IMG/VR virus record: IMGVR_UViG_3300037466_003648
Span: 1 to 64,000 of that record
Origin: a virus
Lineage: Duplodnaviria; Caudoviricetes
Direction: 5' to 3' (one strand)
DNA length: 64,000 nucleotides
Part shown: positions 32,369 through 64,000 of the stretch, piece by piece
Position numbering within the stretch: position 1 is the first letter of the stretch
Layout: each line of letters begins with the position of its first letter
Program-made: the position numbers and the translations under genes
The notes under the pieces: model-generated
Told to the model about the DNA's origin: nothing
Database searches by the model: none
The model's input: only the letters and a program-made list of their open reading frames with translations

Positions 32369-32583
32369 TGCCGCTGCCATGTAAGCGCTGCGGCGGTGAG
32401 ACGTTCAACCACTACCACCAAGTGCTCTGCCGGAAGTGCACGCAGTGTCAGAGCTGTGAGTGCTGTCCGTGCGAGCAGATTGGTTGCCCCGATTGTCCAG
32501 CGGGTGGTCGCCGTGAAGGCGAAGACTCGCTGGACTACTTTGCACGTCGTATGTTCGGCGAGGAGACACAAGATGGCAAGTAA
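32368..32583 (+). CDS. small Cys-rich protein
   Basis: SD AAGGAG; ten Cys residues. Confidence 0.6.
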   Translation: MPLPCKRCGGETFNHYHQVLCRKCTQCQSCECCPCEQIGCPDCPAGGRREGEDSLDYFARRMFGEETQDGK

Positions 32584-43215: not shown

Positions 43216-44025
43216 ATGCTACTTGGTTGTCCCTACTGTCGGACCGTGCTCACCAAGCACTGGTTGTTCCGCACGCTGAAGTGCCCCACGCACGGCAAGA
43301 TCGAGCCGTACCGCGCGATCAACCTCGCGACCACGCCACCGCCCAAGCCGCCCGCGGCTCCGATCAGCAAGACGGCGCCTGTACCCACCCCGCGCCCGCC
43401 GCAGCCCTCGCGGACCCACCACAACCCGCCGCCCCCGGCTAGCCGCCCGGCTCCTCCTCGTGGTGTCCAGCATGTCCACCACGAGCACGAACACCACGAG
43501 CATCACCACCACACCTACATCCAGCCTTCGCCGCCACCCGTGGTCATCGAAGACCTCGGTGTTACGGCCAGCGGCAACTGGGGCACGGACACCCTGGCCC
43601 CTGCTGACAGCGGCGTGACCGCCAGTGATAGCTGGGGCACGACGGGTGCGGCAGGTGGTAACGGTGGTACGCCGGACAACTCTGGTTCTGGTGTGGACGC
43701 CAGCGGCAGCTGGGACACGGGCAACACGTACAGCCCGCCTCCCCCGCCTCCGCCGCCGTCCTACGAACCCAGCTACAGCCCGCCTACGCCGCCTCCTCCG
43801 GCTTCGGATTACAGCTACAGCCCGCCGCCTCCTCCCCCGCCTCCGCCGTCGTCGGACTACGGTTCGTCTTCGTCTTCCTACGACTCCGGCAGCTCCAGCA
43901 GCTCGTACGACTCCGGCAGCTCCAGCAGCTCGTACGACTCCGGCAGCTCCAGCAGCTCGTACGACTCCGGCAGCTCCAGCAGCTCGTACGACTCCGGCGG
44001 ATCGTCGGGCGGCGGGGACTGGTAA
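43216..44025 (+). CDS. zinc-ribbon plus Pro/Ser-rich intrinsically disordered protein
   Basis: SD AGGAGG; CPYC...CPTH; SPPPPPPP and YDSGSSSSS repeats. Confidence 0.75.
   Translation: MLLGCPYCRTVLTKHWLFRTLKCPTHGKIEPYRAINLATTPPPKPPAAPISKTAPVPTPRPPQPSRTHHNPPPPASRPAPPRGVQHVHHEHEHHEHHHHTYIQPSPPPVVIEDLGVTASGNWGTDTLAPADSGVTASDSWGTTGAAGGNGGTPDNSGSGVDASGSWDTGNTYSPPPPPPPPSYEPSYSPPTPPPPASDYSYSPPPPPPPPPSSDYGSSSSSYDSGSSSSSYDSGSSSSSYDSGSSSSSYDSGSSSSSYDSGGSSGGGDW
43879..43998 (+). repeat. 27-bp in-frame tandem repeat x4.4 (TACGACTCCGGCAGCTCCAGCAGCTCG)
   Basis: Four exact copies plus a 12-nt partial copy; no spacers. Confidence 0.95.
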
Positions 44026-55526: not shown

Positions 55527-56468
55527 ATGTTCGAGCGGTACACCGAGAACGCCATTAAGGCGATCATGCTCGCCCAGGAAGAGGCTCGCCGTCTCGGCCA
55601 CAACTACGTCAGCACGGAGTTTGTCCTGTTGGGATTGATCGGTTTGGGTGAGAACAGCCCGGTCTACCGCGCCTTGGTGAAGTTGGGCGTCAGCTCGCCT
55701 CTCAAGACTGCGCGTCTTTTGGTCGAGCAGAGGGTCGGCAAGGGCTCCGGCTTCGTTGGGGTCGAGCTGCCCTTCACGCCACGCATGAAGCGCTCGATCG
55801 AAGTCTCGTGGAACACCGCCCGCGAGCTGGGCCACAACTACATCGCGCCGTTCCACGTCCTGTTCGCCATCATCGCGGAGGAAGAGAGTACAGCGCGTGC
55901 CGTGCTGTTCGATATGGGCATCATCGACCTGGAGACGTTCAAGTCGCTGGTCGTGGACGAGGCTTCGCGTGCTGCAGTTGCCAAGACCGACAGCATCTTG
56001 CAGGCGGTCAACGAGAAGCGTACCGCCGACGAGCGTCGGAACGAGAAGCAGCGTGCGTGGGACAAGAGCTACATGGCGATGGCCCATATCATCGCTGGTC
56101 ACTCTCACGACCCCAAGTTCAAGGTCGGTGCCATCGTCGTCAACGACCTCAACGGCGCCATCGTCGGTCTCGGCTACAACGGTCGCGGCAAGGGTCGTCC
56201 CAACGACCGTCTCTCGATGGAAACGGGCCAGAGCGGCTTCGTCCATGCCGAGATGAATGCCATTGCCCGTGTCTCGTGGGAGATGACGTGTACCTACACG
56301 CTCTACACCACCCTGGCGCCCTGCATGGTCTGCGCGGGTCTGGTTCTGAACAACCCCATCAAGCGGGTCGTCTACGGCCAGATCTACAACGATGACAAGA
56401 CCGGCGTCGAAGAGCTGATTGGCGGCTTGGGGGCGCATCTCGTCCACCATTGTCCGCACCATTCCTAA
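55527..56468 (+). CDS. fusion of a ClpC-type N-terminal (Clp repeat) domain and a dCMP deaminase
   Basis: [26 protein letters not shown]...[14 protein letters not shown]...ARELGHNYI; then [26 protein letters not shown]. Confidence 0.88.
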   Translation: [313 protein letters not shown]

Positions 56469-56627: not shown

Positions 56628-57263
56628 TTGGCAGTGGGCGCTGGCCGCCCTCTTGGATGCGCTGTGCTAGAACCGATCATCATCGACCATGACGCGAGCA
56701 TCTCGTTCACCGGCTACTGGCAGGCGGACGAGATGTACCGGCTCGTGATCGCGCGTAAGCCGGTCACCGGACCGGTCCTTGCGAGCTTGTTGATGGGATC
56801 GACTGGCACGCGCCGTTCCAACTTCCAGGTGCTCAAGACCCCACCAGGCACCAGCCCGGTAGTTCAAGCGATGGGGCTCAACCGGATGTTTGCGATGCCC
56901 CTGGAAGCGCCTGGTGAGCGCAAACCCACCAAGGCGTTCTCGGTGTACGTGTTCGACGGGAACGACACCGAGGGTAGGGGCCGCTTTTCGTGGCTGACGA
57001 GTCTGAACGTCTACCGCTGTGATTGGATGCTAGATGTCCAAAAACAGCGGATGCTCGATCAGATGGATGAAGCCTACGATCGCTGGTTCGTCATGATCGA
57101 CCACCAACTGCACAAGTTGCCGTTTGGGCGCGAAGAGGTCGGATTGTCCAAAGCGTGCGAAAACTGCCCACACCAGTTTTCGTGCATGGCGGGCAATACG
57201 CCCGGTTACCTCATTGGCGACGATCTGCCCGAAAGTGCCCGTCCGCCCCAAAAGCAGGTTTAG
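56628..57263 (+). CDS. hypothetical protein with C-terminal CX2CX5C motif
   Basis: CENCPHQFSCMAG; start uncertain. Confidence 0.6.
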   Translation: MAVGAGRPLGCAVLEPIIIDHDASISFTGYWQADEMYRLVIARKPVTGPVLASLLMGSTGTRRSNFQVLKTPPGTSPVVQAMGLNRMFAMPLEAPGERKPTKAFSVYVFDGNDTEGRGRFSWLTSLNVYRCDWMLDVQKQRMLDQMDEAYDRWFVMIDHQLHKLPFGREEVGLSKACENCPHQFSCMAGNTPGYLIGDDLPESARPPQKQV

Positions 57264-57268
57264 CCAAC

Positions 57269-57958
57269 ATGGACTTTGACGCCCTTTTTGACGCCCAAGC
57301 CAAAGGCACCGTGAACGTCAATGTGAACACCACGCGCCCCGAGGGCTTCTGGTTCGAGCCAGACCCCGAGTGGGACGGTGAGTGGTTGTTGTGGTTCAAG
57401 TGCGGCACCGATGTCGCCTTCCAGCTCATGAGCGACGCGAAGGGCAACCAGCTCGACTACACGGTCACGCTCAAGATGCGCACCAAGACAGGCAAAGACG
57501 CTCCTCGCCGAGCGGTCGTCCGTACGATCGAGAAGACCAACGACAGGGGTGAAACGCAGCAAGTGGCCTACCCCACAATCGTCAACTACTTCGATGTTTC
57601 GTTGATGGAGTCGATTCGGGAGGTCATCGTACGCCAACCCGGTCTGGGCGGCGCCATTCTGTCTCGTGGAAGCGACTACGAGATCGAAGGTACGACGCTG
57701 GTCACGCTCCAGGAGCTGAACGACGAAGCGTACCTGGAGATCGAAGGCAAGGGTTGGGGCTTCGAGCGGGCCATGACGCACAACGGCAAGATGCCGTCTA
57801 ACTTCTCATTCCCCACCACCGAGGTCAAGCGCGGCACCAAGGCCATCTGCGATGTCTGCCCGAACCAGTTCGCCTGCCTCGCCGGACAGCAGAAGATGTT
57901 CGGCATGGAGGAGTACAAGGTGGCGAAATTGATGAAGGGTGGCGATCCCTTCAAGTAG
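57269..57958 (+). CDS. hypothetical protein with C-terminal CX2CX5C motif
   Basis: CDVCPNQFACLAG. Confidence 0.7.
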   Translation: MDFDALFDAQAKGTVNVNVNTTRPEGFWFEPDPEWDGEWLLWFKCGTDVAFQLMSDAKGNQLDYTVTLKMRTKTGKDAPRRAVVRTIEKTNDRGETQQVAYPTIVNYFDVSLMESIREVIVRQPGLGGAILSRGSDYEIEGTTLVTLQELNDEAYLEIEGKGWGFERAMTHNGKMPSNFSFPTTEVKRGTKAICDVCPNQFACLAGQQKMFGMEEYKVAKLMKGGDPFK

Positions 57959-58044
57959 GTGCAAGTACACCTACTTTGGATCTCAGTTTTTCGTCGTCGT
58001 AATTTTTCAAATTCGAGATCCGTGTTTCACAAGGGGCAAGGCCA

Positions 58045-58380
58045 ATGACAACCGACGACGAGACCACACCCGACCCGCTGACCTTGTGGCAGCCGGTCGT
58101 CGAGAACCCCAACGTCCTTCCGTCCAAAGTCAACTACAAGGCGAAGGGCCGTGTCCAGGAATGGCCGTGCTACAAGTACGCCAACTGGGCGCTCGGCAAC
58201 GACGCGGCCTACGTCCGCATCCGTCAGGGTTACAGCCGTGACAGCTTCGTCAAGGTCCCCACAAAAGCCGATCAGATCGGTACTTCGGAGGTCTGCAACC
58301 ACTGCTCTCAGCAGTTCGCGTGCCTGGCAGGCAATGTCACGTCGTTGACGTCTCGCACCCTCCTCTTACCTCCCCCTTAG
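58045..58380 (+). CDS. small protein with C-terminal CX2CX5C motif
   Basis: CNHCSQQFACLAG. Confidence 0.65.
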   Translation: MTTDDETTPDPLTLWQPVVENPNVLPSKVNYKAKGRVQEWPCYKYANWALGNDAAYVRIRQGYSRDSFVKVPTKADQIGTSEVCNHCSQQFACLAGNVTSLTSRTLLLPPP

Positions 58381-58381
58381 C

Positions 58382-58410
58382 TTGTCCACGGACGAGGTTC
58401 GTGGTATAAC
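58382..58410 (+). promoter_or_regulatory. sigma-70-type promoter with extended -10
   Basis: TTGTCC-17 nt (ending TGG)-TATAAC. Confidence 0.55.
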
Positions 58411-58426
58411 CCATAAGGATCAAACC

Positions 58427-58840
58427 ATGAGCAAGCGTTCAGTAGATCCCGTGAAGCCGATTGACGGGTACCAGACCCTTCCGGCGGACCCCGGACCCGG
58501 CACCTACGAGGTGGACATCGAGGTCACACACCGTATTGATGATGTCGTGACTCCCCTGCACAAGGAGACCGTCACCGTCGAGACTGCCTACGGGCGACCC
58601 CAAGCCAGCGCCAGCGCCCAGCTCCAGCTGTGTAAGACGCACCCCGAATTTGCCCGTGAACACGTCTACACCCAAGTAATGGAGGCTCGTCATGTCGCTG
58701 GACCCGCTCAACCCGTCCCCGCTGCAGCCGTCGAGCCAGGCAGTGCTGGAGAACCTGTGGTCGATCCTGAACGCCTCGAAGACGGAGACGAGCACCCCGA
58801 CTACGACTACAACTTCGACAAGCCCTTCGACATCTACTGA
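58427..58840 (+). CDS. hypothetical protein
   Basis: SD AAGGA, ATG 58427. Confidence 0.65.
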   Translation: MSKRSVDPVKPIDGYQTLPADPGPGTYEVDIEVTHRIDDVVTPLHKETVTVETAYGRPQASASAQLQLCKTHPEFAREHVYTQVMEARHVAGPAQPVPAAAVEPGSAGEPVVDPERLEDGDEHPDYDYNFDKPFDIY

Positions 58841-59354
58841 CGAAGGGTCGGTTAGCTACGCGATCACTGTCGGCCCGCCACCTACGGTCGAGGGTTTCAG
58901 GAACGAGATCCTGATGCGCCAGGCGGAGGTGCTGGGCACGGTCGAGGTGTTGACGTCGCAGGTTCATAACCTGCTCGAATCCGTCAGCCGTGAAGTCAGC
59001 TTCCGCACCCAGATGCCCAAGACACTCGCGTTCGGCGACCCTTTGGACCTGCCCGTCACACCGCCTTCGCGGGTACCGGCAGAGTTCATGCGTCCCACCT
59101 CCGCGGCGCACTTCCTGGCGGCACACACGGGCCACAAGTGGACCAACCCCAAGCTGCACGACCTCGCCAAGCGTCTGGGATGGCGGCCCGCCGATGTCAA
59201 GTACGACATGGAGCGCTCCGACCATCGCTACTTCACTGTGGTCACAACGCGTGAAGGGTTCGACTTCGGTGTCTATACCCCCAACGCGCTCGACTACGTC
59301 CTGGATCGGCCTGACGAGTGCTGGCAGATCGCAACCAGCAAGGAGACTCGATGA
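58692..59354 (+). CDS. hypothetical protein (true start probably downstream of 58840)
   Basis: C-terminal two thirds show coding bias; N-terminus overlaps the upstream gene. Confidence 0.55.
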   Translation: MSLDPLNPSPLQPSSQAVLENLWSILNASKTETSTPTTTTTSTSPSTSTDEGSVSYAITVGPPPTVEGFRNEILMRQAEVLGTVEVLTSQVHNLLESVSREVSFRTQMPKTLAFGDPLDLPVTPPSRVPAEFMRPTSAAHFLAAHTGHKWTNPKLHDLAKRLGWRPADVKYDMERSDHRYFTVVTTREGFDFGVYTPNALDYVLDRPDECWQIATSKETR

Positions 59355-60427
59355 GCATGTCTACCACCCCCAACACCACGGCGCTGACCACCCGCTCGGC
59401 CGTCGGCTGGACGGGTGAGCATGCTCGCGTGCGTGTCAAGCAGTACTACGAGGCGACCGGTTTCTTCCCGGAGACGGCCGGTAAGCCCTGGTGGAACGAC
59501 TACACCCGTGCGATGGCCGACCGCCATGGCATCGTGCTTCCGCCCTACCAGGTCGTGCTCACGACCGGCGGGTTGCTGCAACTCAAGAACACCATCCTCG
59601 CAGAAGTGGCCGCGATGCCCCGTGTCGAAGACGAAGTGCTCGCGACCACGACGGCACCGCTCGTGACCGATGCCAGCGTGCCGATTGCCCCGTGCGGGAT
59701 GGTTCACCGACAGAAGGCTATCGAGGCGTACGCGCACATCTCCGAGCGCATCCTGCGGGCGGTCGACCAGGAGCATCGCACGCTGTCAAGTGTGGCGGTC
59801 GAATTGAACGGAGAGGGCATGACAACCCGCACGGGCAGCAAGTTCACCTCCAAAACGATCGGCAACATCTACCGGCGCGCCAAGGGTCTGCCCTCCTATG
59901 AGCAGCTGTTGCTTGCCCGTGTTGGTACACCCCTGCCTACGCTCCCCGACGCCGTGCGCGAGCCGCAGGCGGTCGAGGCGGAGCTGGTCACGGACGACGA
60001 CACGCCGACGAGCATCTTGACCCAGGCGCCCGACTACTCGCACAGCCCACCGCAGATGATCGAAGACGAGCCCCCTGCGTCCCCAGCACCAGTGCTTTCT
60101 GGTCGTCTCGTCGAGGTGCCCGCCGACCAGTTGCAACAGGCGTTGGAACTGGCCTCTCAGGCAGCCGCGGCTCAGGCGAAGGTCGCCCAGTACGAAGCGG
60201 TGATCGCCCAGTACGACGAGAAGTCCAAGGCACTGCTCACCCAGGTCGAGCGCGCTCAGACCATCGTGCAGGAGAACGTCAACCTGCGTGTTCAGGTCCA
60301 GGATCTGAAAGATCAGCTCCAGCAGCTGGAGTTCCGTAACGCGCACTGGCTCAACACCAAGGAGTTGATCCAGGAAGCGTTGAAGAGTGCCCCTTACCCC
60401 CTCCCCCTCCAGAAGAAGGAGTCCTAG
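59351..60427 (+). CDS. protein with serine-recombinase DNA-binding (Recombinase-domain-like) helix and C-terminal coiled coil
   Basis: SD AAGGAG; TLSSVAVELNGEGMTTRTGSKFTSKTIGNI; no resolvase catalytic domain seen. Confidence 0.65.
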   Translation: MSMSTTPNTTALTTRSAVGWTGEHARVRVKQYYEATGFFPETAGKPWWNDYTRAMADRHGIVLPPYQVVLTTGGLLQLKNTILAEVAAMPRVEDEVLATTTAPLVTDASVPIAPCGMVHRQKAIEAYAHISERILRAVDQEHRTLSSVAVELNGEGMTTRTGSKFTSKTIGNIYRRAKGLPSYEQLLLARVGTPLPTLPDAVREPQAVEAELVTDDDTPTSILTQAPDYSHSPPQMIEDEPPASPAPVLSGRLVEVPADQLQQALELASQAAAAQAKVAQYEAVIAQYDEKSKALLTQVERAQTIVQENVNLRVQVQDLKDQLQQLEFRNAHWLNTKELIQEALKSAPYPLPLQKKES

Positions 60428-60429
60428 TC

Positions 60430-61299
60430 TTGCCCGAGTCTGCTATCGTTCTTGCCGACAGCATCAGCCCCAACGGTGTGCGTTTGACCACCTTGCAGGT
60501 CACCTTCGCGCGCATCGTGTTGGCGGAGGTCAACACGCACCGCCAGTTCACCCGCAGCTCGGCCAGCTCGCGAGCTATCCCCGTCGAGAAGATGATCCAG
60601 CGCTGCATCGACGACCCCTTCATCCCCGATGCGTTCGGTAAGAACCGGGCGGGCATGCAAGCCAGCGAGAACCTGAACGACCGGGACGCGCAGGTGGCCC
60701 AGCAGATCTGGCTTGAAGCGCGCGACCAAGCCGTGCGTTCGGCGAGGGCGCTGCTCAACACCGGTGTGCATAAACAGATCACCAACCGTCTGTTGGAGCC
60801 CTTCATGTGGCACACCGCGATCATCACCGCCACGGAGTTCTCCAACTTCTTCGCGCTGCGCTGTCACCCCGACGCCCAGCCCCAGATCCGGGCAGCAGCG
60901 GAGTTGATGCGTGAGGCGATGGCGAACTCGACACCCGTGCACGTCAACCATGGCGAGTGGCACTTGCCTTTGGTTAGTGGTGTCGATCTGCACGAGCTGT
61001 TGGCGGAGGGCTACGCGATGGAGCAGATCGTGCGCATCAGCGCCGGTCGCTGCGCGCGGGTCAGCTACCTCACCCACGACGGCAAGCGCGAGCCCGTCAA
61101 GGACATCGAGCTGTGCGACCGCCTGGTTACGAGCGGTCACATGTCTCCGTTGGAGCATGTCGCCACGCCGGGTGTCTTCCACAACAACGGGGAGACGAAC
61201 GAGCAGGTGCCTTTCATCGGCAACTTCAAGGGCTGGCTCCAGTTGCGCAAGACCATCCCCAACGAGCACGACTTCAGCCTGATCAAGTCGGCTGTGTAG
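60430..61299 (+). CDS. thyX: FAD-dependent thymidylate synthase
   Basis: THRQFTRSSASSRAIP, HKQITNRLLEPF, LRCHPDAQPQI, SAGRCARVSY, HMSPLEH. Confidence 0.9.
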   Translation: MPESAIVLADSISPNGVRLTTLQVTFARIVLAEVNTHRQFTRSSASSRAIPVEKMIQRCIDDPFIPDAFGKNRAGMQASENLNDRDAQVAQQIWLEARDQAVRSARALLNTGVHKQITNRLLEPFMWHTAIITATEFSNFFALRCHPDAQPQIRAAAELMREAMANSTPVHVNHGEWHLPLVSGVDLHELLAEGYAMEQIVRISAGRCARVSYLTHDGKREPVKDIELCDRLVTSGHMSPLEHVATPGVFHNNGETNEQVPFIGNFKGWLQLRKTIPNEHDFSLIKSAV

Positions 61300-61327
61300 T
61301 AGGAGGCGCGGCTTCCGAGGAGTTCTT

Positions 61328-62353
61328 ATGGCCGCACACCTCTCGCGCACGGCGATCGCACTGACCCAGGTACCCACCCCCGACCAGCGTAGTCACATCA
61401 TGGCGACGCTGGACGTGGTGTTCCGTCAGGAGCTGGGCATCTACGTCAGCACGGAGATCAGCCGGATGGCGTGCCACCCCAACATCAACGTCGCGCTGAC
61501 CAAGGCGGGACGGGTGCCCTGGTCCTACGAGTTCACCATTTACAAGATGGGCTTGGAGATCAAGGGCATCTTCAGCCCGTTGTGGGAGCCCACCCAGGTA
61601 ACGGGTAAGCGCGGTGGTGTAAAGGTCGAGCACTTCCTGGTTGATTGGCTCGTCACGGTCTACACGGTCAGCTCCAGCTGGACGGACTTCACCCCGTCCG
61701 ACATGGCCTGGGCCAGCGGTTCGCTGCTGCGCCACATCGAATCCGATCGGCTCAAAGGCTTCGAGTTCGAGTTGACCACCGAGAAGGAGCGGGACGCGCA
61801 AGGTCGAGAGATCAGTGTCCCCCGCTACCGGATCAAGAAGGTGTTCCAGTTCCAGCTGGGGCACCTGCTGAAGGCCGACAGCGAAGAGCCGGACCCCGAC
61901 CTCCAGAACATCGACCACTGGATCTGGTCGCTGGGGTCGCGTGCTGACTCGTTCGTCGTGGACGACCTGATCGATGTCTCGCCCGAGGTGCAGCTCTTGC
62001 TGCCCAGCAAGTTCATGCTTCAGCATCGCACCCAGCGCGTGACCTACAAGGACACGAACGGCAAGGATGCCGAGGAGAACGTGGACTTCACCTTGGTCTG
62101 GATGAAAGACAACTTGACCACTTGGCGCAACAAGCTGTCCACCCCTTGTCCTTACGCTCACCAAGGGGGCTTCCACGACATGAACACCACGCTTACCGAG
62201 GCGATCCTGTTCTGGAATAACAAAGTGTTGGGCAACCGCGAGCTGTGTGCGGGTTGTACCAACGAGTTCACCTGTATGGCACGGGAGTACCGTGGCGGTG
62301 GTAGCAAGTTGGAGTACCCATTGCAACTTCTGGAGCCACCCTTGGCACAGTAG
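61328..62353 (+). CDS. hypothetical protein with C-terminal CX2CX5C motif
   Basis: SD GAGGAG; CAGCTNEFTCMA. Confidence 0.75.
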   Translation: MAAHLSRTAIALTQVPTPDQRSHIMATLDVVFRQELGIYVSTEISRMACHPNINVALTKAGRVPWSYEFTIYKMGLEIKGIFSPLWEPTQVTGKRGGVKVEHFLVDWLVTVYTVSSSWTDFTPSDMAWASGSLLRHIESDRLKGFEFELTTEKERDAQGREISVPRYRIKKVFQFQLGHLLKADSEEPDPDLQNIDHWIWSLGSRADSFVVDDLIDVSPEVQLLLPSKFMLQHRTQRVTYKDTNGKDAEENVDFTLVWMKDNLTTWRNKLSTPCPYAHQGGFHDMNTTLTEAILFWNNKVLGNRELCAGCTNEFTCMAREYRGGGSKLEYPLQLLEPPLAQ

Positions 62354-62777: not shown

Positions 62778-63200
62778 ATGGCAGAGGGGCGGTGCCAAGC
62801 CTGCCCTCACGAAGGTAAACTGACCAAGCACCACATCATCCCCCGTAAGGTGGGTGGACCGGATCGGCGGTGGAACATCGCCTACCTGTGCATGGACTGT
62901 CACGCCCTCGTCGAGCGCTACTACTGGCGTCAGCTCTCTCGCCGTCAACCGCTGGCAGCACGCACGATCAAGGAGATCGCCAACGCCTTCAAGGCCAAGC
63001 GCATTCCCATCGAGTGTGTTGCCGAAGCGCAGAACCGGCAGCAGCGAGCCTGGCGCAAGATCCTGGAACGACCGGCCCCTTGGGTCGACTGGTACAAGGA
63101 AGCTTGCGCTTGGATCACAACGGTCGAGATCACCGAACACAAGCACGTCGCGGACGCCATCACGAGCAAGCCGTGGTGGCATGACAAGAAAGAGGCATAG
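62778..63200 (+). CDS. HNH endonuclease
   Basis: CQAC...HHIIPRKVGGPD..WN...LCMDCH. Confidence 0.8.
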   Translation: MAEGRCQACPHEGKLTKHHIIPRKVGGPDRRWNIAYLCMDCHALVERYYWRQLSRRQPLAARTIKEIANAFKAKRIPIECVAEAQNRQQRAWRKILERPAPWVDWYKEACAWITTVEITEHKHVADAITSKPWWHDKKEA

Positions 63201-63201
63201 C

Positions 63202-64000
63202 GTGGGACTCCTGGTACAAGCCGTCATCTTTGATCTGGATGACACCTTGATCGAGACGGCGGTCGTCTACCAGGCCACGCTGCGCGAGGCCATCGCCTTG
63301 TGCGCCTCGGCGGGGTTGGACATCAGCACCGCCCACGATGTGTTCCGGGACATCGAGATCGAGATGATCGACCAGTTGGGCTTCGCCAAGGAGCGCTACC
63401 CGCTCTCCTTGGCGCGGCTCGGCACGACGCTGGCCGAGCAACAGAACAAGACCCTCGACCCCGCGCTGGTCAAGCGCCTGGGGCAGCTGGGTTGGGACCT
63501 TTACGAGTTTGACCACGAGGTGAAGGTAGGTGCCGAGCGAGTGCTGCGTGTGCTGCGCTTCGCCGACTACCGGCTTATCCTGGTGACCAAGGGAGACGAA
63601 GAGATCCAGCGTGCCAAGCTGATCCGCAGTGGCCTGGCCGAACTCTTCCACGAAGTCTACGTGCTGGCCGACAAGACGCCCGAGACCTGGGCGGAGGTCG
63701 CCCGCGTCGCCGAACTGCGACCCCACGAGTGCTTCGTGATTGGCGACTCCGTGCGCAGCGACATCAACGCCTCGATCGCCGCGGGCTTCAACGCCATCCA
63801 TATTCCACCGCCCAGCGAGTGGTTCTTCGAGAAGGCCGAACCGCACGCCGCTGCAGTCGTGAAGACCCACCTCGACGATCTGTTGGACGTGTTCCGCGTG
63901 CAGCACCTGGTCCGTGCCGAATGGACCTATCGCAACCAGCCCGAGCGCGATCTCATGCGCGCCACCAACGACGACCGCATGACGATGGTGCAGCATCATC
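63202..64000 (+). CDS. HAD-superfamily hydrolase (nucleotidase-like), 3'-truncated by the window edge; absent from the ORF track
   Basis: GTG 63202 frame reads VIFDLDDTL (I), LVTKGD (II), K (III), IGDSVRSDI (IV); open to the end of the window. Confidence 0.85.
   Translation, partial: MGLLVQAVIFDLDDTLIETAVVYQATLREAIALCASAGLDISTAHDVFRDIEIEMIDQLGFAKERYPLSLARLGTTLAEQQNKTLDPALVKRLGQLGWDLYEFDHEVKVGAERVLRVLRFADYRLILVTKGDEEIQRAKLIRSGLAELFHEVYVLADKTPETWAEVARVAELRPHECFVIGDSVRSDINASIAAGFNAIHIPPPSEWFFEKAEPHAAAVVKTHLDDLLDVFRVQHLVRAEWTYRNQPERDLMRATNDDRMTMVQHH

Follow-up and report, generated by a model that had tools for sequence, protein, structure and literature searches.

The stretch of DNA analysed here (the window, 64,000 nt) is the first 64 kb of IMG/VR record IMGVR_UViG_3300037466_003648, the genome of an uncultured soil jumbo phage (205,180 bp, GC content ~0.62–0.63) that has direct terminal repeats and is rated complete. 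Four plus-strand genes in the window, here called A, B, C and D, encode proteins with a similar cysteine-rich module of ~30 residues close to their C-termini, and this candidate metal-binding module is the subject of the present analysis. Gene A (56628..57263) encodes 211 aa as its longest open reading frame (ORF); its true start may be the GTG codon at 56664, since 'IDHDASISF' lies close to the N-terminus of the orthologues P0008 and P0009. The module of A (LHKLPFGREEVGLSKA-CENCPHQFSCMAG) spans 57108..57194, and a conserved fourth cysteine ('YRCDW') is encoded at 57018..57020, 46 residues before the motif. Gene B (57269..57958; 229 aa, exactly four cysteines) carries its module (NFSFPTTEVKRGTKAI-CDVCPNQFACLAG) at 57800..57886 and its conserved fourth cysteine codon ('WFKCGT') at 57401..57403, 149 residues before the motif. 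Gene C (58045..58380; 111 aa, also with exactly four cysteines) is the prototype of a family of small proteins of 82–136 aa; its module (FVKVPTKADQIGTSEV-CNHCSQQFACLAG) lies at 58246..58332, and its fourth cysteine ('EWPCY', W-x-C in the family) is encoded at 58168..58170, 42 residues before the motif. Gene D (61328..62353; 341 aa) directly follows thyX, with its module (EAILFWNNKVLGNREL-CAGCTNEFTCMAR) at 62198..62284 and its fourth cysteine codon ('STPCPY') at 62147..62149, 33 residues before the motif. The upstream cysteine that the initial annotation had noted in each of the four proteins is thus present, and it is kept in their orthologues at the distances given.

The sequences that follow the module in A, B and D (57195-57263, 57887-57958 and 62285-62353, respectively) are conserved and distinct in each orthologous group, with the tail motifs 'GYLIGDDLPE' in A, 'FGMxEYKV...G.DPFK' in B and 'GG.KL.YP.QL' in D. 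The acidic, proline and phenylalanine tips of these tails loosely resemble SSB-type C-terminal tails.

When the six-frame translation of the window was searched for C..C...F.C[ML]A, exactly four matches were returned, all on the plus strand. Their first-cysteine codons (57156, 57848, 58294 and 62246) fall in the ORFs of 211, 229, 111 and 341 aa and every motif (4/4) lies 28–36 residues ahead of the stop codon, confirming the positions and the near-terminal placement first described. The number of matches expected by chance, calculated analytically from the residue frequencies of the window, is 0.0006, and none of 200 triplet shuffles of the window yielded a match. Pairwise identity between the module copies at codon positions 1, 2 and 3 is 0.57, 0.82 and 0.47, respectively, and the synonymous codons used for Cys, Leu and Ala vary among copies. 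The conservation is therefore at the protein level and reflects neither a DNA repeat nor recent gene conversion.

Extending the strict search to the whole genome revealed a fifth match at 123345, 16 residues from the end of a UvrD-like superfamily 1 (SF1) helicase (gene G), while relaxed matches were found at 100690 and 101176 in the adjoining genes E (147 aa) and F (159 aa). Hidden Markov models (HMMs) of the module were built twice, from seven and later from 44 sequences, and were searched against the six-frame ORF set of the genome. Both isolate exactly seven ORFs (33–48 bits; 48, 44, 44.5 and 33 bits for A, B, C and D, respectively), with the next match in the whole 205-kb genome at 10 bits. 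The set of four proteins originally proposed therefore holds within the window but is too small for the genome, where three more members lie beyond the window: E and F, which are small proteins encoded upstream of a uracil-DNA glycosylase gene, and the helicase. These seven proteins almost certainly constitute a real, lineage-specific module family.

The module follows the consensus h-x-L-P-x6-G-x4-C-x2-C-[PT]-[NH]-Q-[FL]-x-C-[LM]-A-G, and BLASTP alignments among the paralogues are confined to 12–56 residues around the motif. Profile comparisons were made with hhalign against the small family, represented by a 17-sequence alignment of C and 16 relatives. Orthologues of A aligned with this family over 85 columns (hhalign probability 97.9%), orthologues of B over 39 columns (97.2%), those of E and F together over 23 columns (94.7%) and those of D over 23 columns (71.8%). 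The 85 columns fall on the C-terminal half of A, so that A consists of an N-terminal extension joined to a full copy of the C-type domain (its C-terminal ~95 aa), whereas B, D, E, F and the helicase have just 23–39 residues in common. Accordingly, the initial description of the four window proteins as otherwise dissimilar stands for B and D and fails for A in relation to C.

Each member has at least four cysteines, the smallest having exactly four, and one upstream cysteine is conserved inside every orthologous group. Two arrangements can be distinguished. Type I comprises A, B, C, D and the small proteins, and its fourth cysteine lies 31–149 residues upstream, commonly in a W-x-C context. Type II comprises E, F and the UvrD-like helicase; here the distance upstream is only 15–16 positions, giving the pattern C-X9-G-X4(5)-C-X2-C-X5-C. 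Judged from this layout, the type II module is a self-contained mini-domain of ~45 residues. The only invariant columns in the 17-member small-family alignment are M1, P72, C84, C87, Q90 and C93. None of its acidic or lysine columns is conserved, which makes a catalytic role of the module unlikely. These comparisons support the idea, as first suggested, of a paralogous family whose core is CX2CX5C together with a single conserved cysteine at a distance.

Relatives were sought with a 31-column profile against 1.84 billion representative proteins, which returned 18 matches at E<=1e-3: seven self proteins, three eukaryotic C2H2 zinc fingers that represent false positives and eight relatives. The self match of A is P0003, a near-identical 130-aa variant call, and the relatives are orthologues of A, B and F along with small C-like proteins (P0008, P0009, P0011-P0014 and P0016-P0018). 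The contigs of these diverged metagenomic relatives are syntenic with the phage, and all keep the motif and the fourth cysteine. Contigs L005 and L006 (GC 0.56–0.57) have kept A, B, C and D with both features. The gene order on L005 is guanylate kinase, DUF7768, dCMP deaminase, A, B, C, two unknown genes, ThyX, D, an unknown gene, HNH and HAD, and on L007 it is E, F and uracil-DNA glycosylase. Between orthologues, the module is 41–69% identical and the remainder of the protein 21–38%, with the exception of a distant D-like pair (21% in the module versus 18% in the remainder).

In a more distant relative (L010, L011 and L012; GC 0.60), ~15 carriers are spread across 15 kb. In one run of genes (L011:4249-9079, also present on L010 and L012), 12 of the 14 genes are carriers of 82–188 aa, and the run is interrupted by two 68-aa genes that lack the module. 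The N-terminal halves of the carriers are highly divergent, while the module sits near the C-terminus in 11 of the 12; in the remaining one (188 aa), it lies ~60 residues from the end.

A word-based homologue search with B as query retrieved B alone, and one with the small-family profile retrieved six further proteins. Scans of the IMG/VR set used here revealed no relatives (two degenerate DNA patterns gave one chance match and no match, respectively, and the helicase query none), a pattern scan of JGI metagenomes gave three matches, all to short ORFs outside the family, and tblastn of B against INPHARED gave no match. The module family is rare and has no cultured representative.

One further gene was considered as an eighth member and rejected, namely the HAD-family hydrolase gene at the end of the window (63181-64000, extending to genome position 64326; L001:1182-2327), whose tail is detected by neither module HMM and has an hhalign probability of 3%. 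This hydrolase is extended at its C-terminus by ~150 aa, which contain one upstream cysteine and finish in a CX2CX5C of another kind ('LPTALCKKCSNRDEC'; CKKCSNRDEC). The extension is kept in L005 ('LPTQLCRACRFRSEC') and is missing from the 237-aa HAD protein of L010 and L012.

All seven carriers are encoded within clusters of DNA replication, repair and nucleotide-metabolism genes. A, B and C come after a Clp_N-dCMP deaminase fusion and D after ThyX, so that A to D lie between dCMP deaminase, ThyX and HAD genes; E and F are upstream of uracil-DNA glycosylase; and the helicase gene lies between those for RNase HII and ribonucleotide reductase. The fusion gene (55527-56468; 313 aa) encodes a dCMP deaminase with an N-terminal Clp_N repeat domain, and its orthologues in L005 and L006 encode 181 aa without Clp_N. 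Downstream of C, two long plus-strand ORFs in different frames (58382-58840 and 58692-59354) overlap by ~150 nt, leaving their gene starts uncertain, and relatives show a single 196-aa gene at the place of these ORFs (58382-59354).

The helicase matches PF00580, PF13361 and PF13538 and has only ~50 residues after helicase motif VI. Orthologues with 38–65% identity retain the pattern 'PYG..FC..G.L....G.Q..C..C..Q..CL', other orthologues with 42–45% identity have an unrelated C-terminal sequence without the cysteine tail, and more distant cellular PcrA/UvrD homologues end in a Tudor-type 'HxxFGxG' sequence. The short C-terminal domain (CTD) of PcrA/UvrD adopts a Tudor fold and interacts with RNA polymerase (PMC5397179, PMC3797733, PMC8318588). 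The phage module occupies an equal position, being a short domain directly after motif VI; however, its sequence is unrelated, cysteine-rich and probably metal-bound, and the analogy is one of position only.

Two helicase orthologues, P0028 and P0030, carry inteins (PF14890 in both, PF01079 also in P0028; L019:10001-13033). P0030 is encoded on a 208,343-bp NCBI record (CACUYI010000001.1) that is syntenic with the phage around the helicase gene, and the helicase there lacks the cysteine tail. When an intein-bearing helicase relative was compared with INPHARED, only SPO1-like Bacillus phages were found, at ~30% identity.

AlphaFold2 (AF2) modelling of C with the 17-sequence alignment gave a small four-stranded sheet (predicted local distance difference test (pLDDT) score 65, predicted template modelling score 0.52), with short helical turns at CxxC and QFxCL and, between Cys42 and Cys84, a hairpin formed by strands at residues 56–59 and 67–70. 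Fold searches with this model returned nothing significant in the PDB (Foldseek, best E 1.3), in a wide VIA-align search (best Z 3.2), in BFVD (best E 0.5) or in the ESM Atlas (TM <0.5), and ESM Atlas feature searches with C and D gave rows at chance level. The model of the helicase C-terminus is confident only as far as the 'WPYG..MFC' helix.

Scans of A to G and 17 small members against Pfam, PHROGs and NCBIfam yielded sub-threshold or spurious matches only, and searches of PDB sequences with three family profiles returned nothing relevant at E<=10. The sub-threshold HMM matches on or around the cysteine motif of the seven proteins are solely to the Fe-S-binding families WhiB and SPASM. The cysteine spacing itself is already known, but no library or paper searched describes the domain family, the type II mini form, the attachment of the module to a UvrD-like helicase or the tandem expansion.

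The module and the one further conserved cysteine probably form a four-cysteine metal site. Zinc sites are normally built from a pair of CxxC or CxxH knuckles, whereas CxxC followed by a cysteine five residues on, together with one remote cysteine, is the classical [4Fe-4S] spacing. Because the phage proteins share their spacing with the sites in WhiB, Cas4/AddB, endonuclease III and SPASM/Twitch, we lean towards a [4Fe-4S] cluster rather than zinc as the bound metal. In type I proteins, in which the fourth cysteine sits so far upstream of the motif, the metal would staple the C-terminus onto the body of the protein.

The systems with which the module can be compared include the SPASM/Twitch domains. 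The SPASM motif reads CX9-15GX4C-gap-CX2CX5CX3C-gap-C, with one ligand preceding a β-hairpin (PMC6231123). Both are C-terminal extensions. The order of a cysteine, ~9 residues, a glycine, four residues, a cysteine and CX2CX5C recalls SPASM in part, and the moderate AF2 model of C places a β-hairpin between its first cysteine and its cysteine-rich end. Type II resembles a collapsed SPASM motif in that the cysteine after GX4 doubles as the first cysteine of CX2CX5C. The differences are that neither a gap nor a helix separates GX4C from CX2C in the phage module, which also lacks the CX3C and the seventh cysteine, that the phage genome has no radical-SAM core (no match to PF04055 in the genome) and that the carriers comprise a UvrD helicase and orphan proteins, the module being free-standing or on the helicase. 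The likeness of type II to SPASM is a resemblance and not membership.

Taken together, we slightly favour the view that the phage encodes a lineage-specific, portable C-terminal Cys4 metal module, likelier to hold [4Fe-4S] than zinc, on proteins of DNA metabolism. Several observations weigh against it. AF2 models the helicase tail with pLDDT <50 across the module, which lends no structural support to a shared fold. The match of PF02467 (Whib) over the motif of B, although the best in the genome, reaches 12.9 bits against a cut-off of 23.6. The sole genome match of TIGR04085 (SPASM), to residues 127–189 of A, which run from the fourth cysteine to the motif, reaches 15.6 bits against a cut-off of 27, and a search of the genome with PF13186 gave no match. 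The hydrophobic residue after the second cysteine is at +4 in the phage module and at +2 in WhiB, EndoIII and Cas4. Finally, the non-ligand P, N/H, Q, F/L, L/M, A and G residues are strongly conserved across paralogues, beyond what a structural metal site usually needs, suggesting a further constraint such as a partner.

The first alternative, that the module binds structural zinc in a knuckle-type Cys4 site and does no more than stabilise small or terminal domains, appears distinctly less likely to us. Four conserved cysteines including a CxxC knuckle are compatible with it, the profile search draws the eukaryotic C2H2 zinc fingers mentioned above as false positives, one small member weakly matches the rubredoxin-like FdhE_C (E 0.0036) and an aerobic life in soil or freshwater is probable for the hosts. 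The classical [4Fe-4S] spacing, at odds with the usual paired knuckles, and the weak WhiB and SPASM matches over or around the cysteine motif argue against it.

A docking or regulatory role is a tentative proposal by analogy, which we hold as somewhat less likely than not: the module would be a metal-stabilised, non-catalytic end-piece that docks or regulates its carriers at a common site on DNA, the replisome or an RNA polymerase component. This proposal draws on the location of the carriers in DNA-metabolism clusters, on the position of the helicase module at the partner-binding CTD of PcrA/UvrD and on the strong conservation of the non-ligand residues in paralogues that are otherwise unrelated. 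A stronger version, which takes up the shared docking tag raised in the initial annotation and which we consider unlikely, is that the module is primarily a docking tag whose PNQ[FL]xC[LM]AG surface is recognised by a common partner (phage or host RNA polymerase, a replisome part, a chaperone or a protease), the tandem small proteins being adaptors or competitors for that site; this would be compatible with metal binding. In its favour, paralogues with nothing else in common conserve the non-ligand residues, the helicase module replaces the RNA polymerase-binding Tudor CTD of PcrA/UvrD, the tail has given way to another C-terminus in related helicases, as expected of modular behaviour, and a relative shows tandem expansion of the small carriers. 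On the other hand, each orthologous group has its own conserved post-module tail, which could make specific contacts instead. A β-clamp-binding motif (QLxLx[LF]-like, 'QLSCLAG') was also considered and set aside, as the invariant cysteines and the fourth cysteine argue for a folded metal site and not an extended peptide.

It is very improbable that the carriers are highly divergent WhiB-like (Wbl) [4Fe-4S] transcription factors, although they share with these their small size, four cysteines, several paralogues, a proline after the second cysteine and a leucine after the last. The Wbl spacing C-X14-22-C-X2-C-X5-C accommodates E, F and the helicase (14–15), and PF02467 finds its best genome match over the motif of B. 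That match is well short of the cut-off, no member has the G[VI]WGG turn or the basic tail, and the AF2 model of C has four β-strands (at moderate confidence), whereas Wbl proteins are helical. Type I proteins, moreover, have 30–148 residues in the first interval, corresponding to a fourth cysteine 31–149 residues away, and the module also terminates a helicase.

Slimmer still is the prospect that these are iron-staple PD-(D/E)xK nucleases of the Cas4/AddB/Dna2 type that have diverged past recognition. The cysteine layout is equal, with an early cysteine and a C-terminal CX2CX5C seen in all members and their orthologues, the chain end would clamp to the protein body in the same manner, and both are tied to DNA metabolism and SF1 helicases. 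The phage proteins are, however, much smaller and without a PD-(D/E)xK motif or fold: members of 82–111 aa are below the size of the nuclease fold, and the helicase tail has only ~45 residues. In six-frame searches of the genome, PF01930 (Cas4) gave no match at E<=10 and PF12705 matched none of the seven carriers (0/7), its only match being at 128029-128292 within a 449-aa ORF, while Pfam scans of A to G returned no nuclease family. No D, E or K column is conserved in the family alignment, and the candidate 'EGK' of B reads 'TGT' in the orthologue P0016. The initial annotation, which saw no PD-(D/E)xK motif in these proteins, is borne out. The one bona fide nuclease gene of PDDEXK_1 (RecB-like) type in the phage is this 449-aa ORF (127876-129225; L014), which has no relation to the module family and is kept downstream of ribonucleotide reductase in L019 and L020.

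That the motif arose by chance or as a DNA-level feature (such as a repeat element, the in-frame reading of a regulatory site or a recent gene conversion) is practically untenable, with nothing found in its favour, and is refuted by four matches against an expectation of 0.0006, by the shuffles and by a third-position identity of only 47% with varying synonymous codons; it is opposed further by retention of the motif in orthologues whose genomes differ in GC.

Two other features were noted elsewhere in the window. A short plus-strand ORF at 32428-32500 (89 aa stop-to-stop) contains the very cysteine-rich stretch CRKCTQCQSCECCPCEQIGCPDCPA. At ~43900-44000, a 9-residue unit, SCWSCRSRT, is repeated at least three times in a minus-frame translation, which points to a 27-nt tandem repeat within the plus-strand gene 43216-44025.

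A more far-reaching and rather improbable interpretation is that the module is a minimal, portable [4Fe-4S] 'mini-Twitch' (C-X9-G-X4-C-X2-C-X5-C) derived from radical-SAM enzymes, which this phage clade uses as a cluster-dependent address label. Such a label would gather the UvrD-like helicase, along with small accessory proteins that vary from case to case, at a single site on the machinery for replication or transcription, recruitment might be coupled to iron or redox state, and the tandem small carriers could be competing or host-directed adaptors diversified in an arms race.

Were the module merely a structural zinc site, it would amount to a routine new domain of unknown function. If the favoured reading of a portable metal module is true, it adds an undescribed metal-binding domain family and possibly the smallest self-contained cluster module of the CX2CX5C type. 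A helicase whose partner-binding CTD has been exchanged for a cysteine module would offer a handle on its recruitment in a jumbo phage equipped with an RNA polymerase of its own. The ~15-gene expansion, in turn, marks a fast-evolving phage family with a fixed 'handle' and variable 'heads', a design common among host-takeover and anti-defence proteins.

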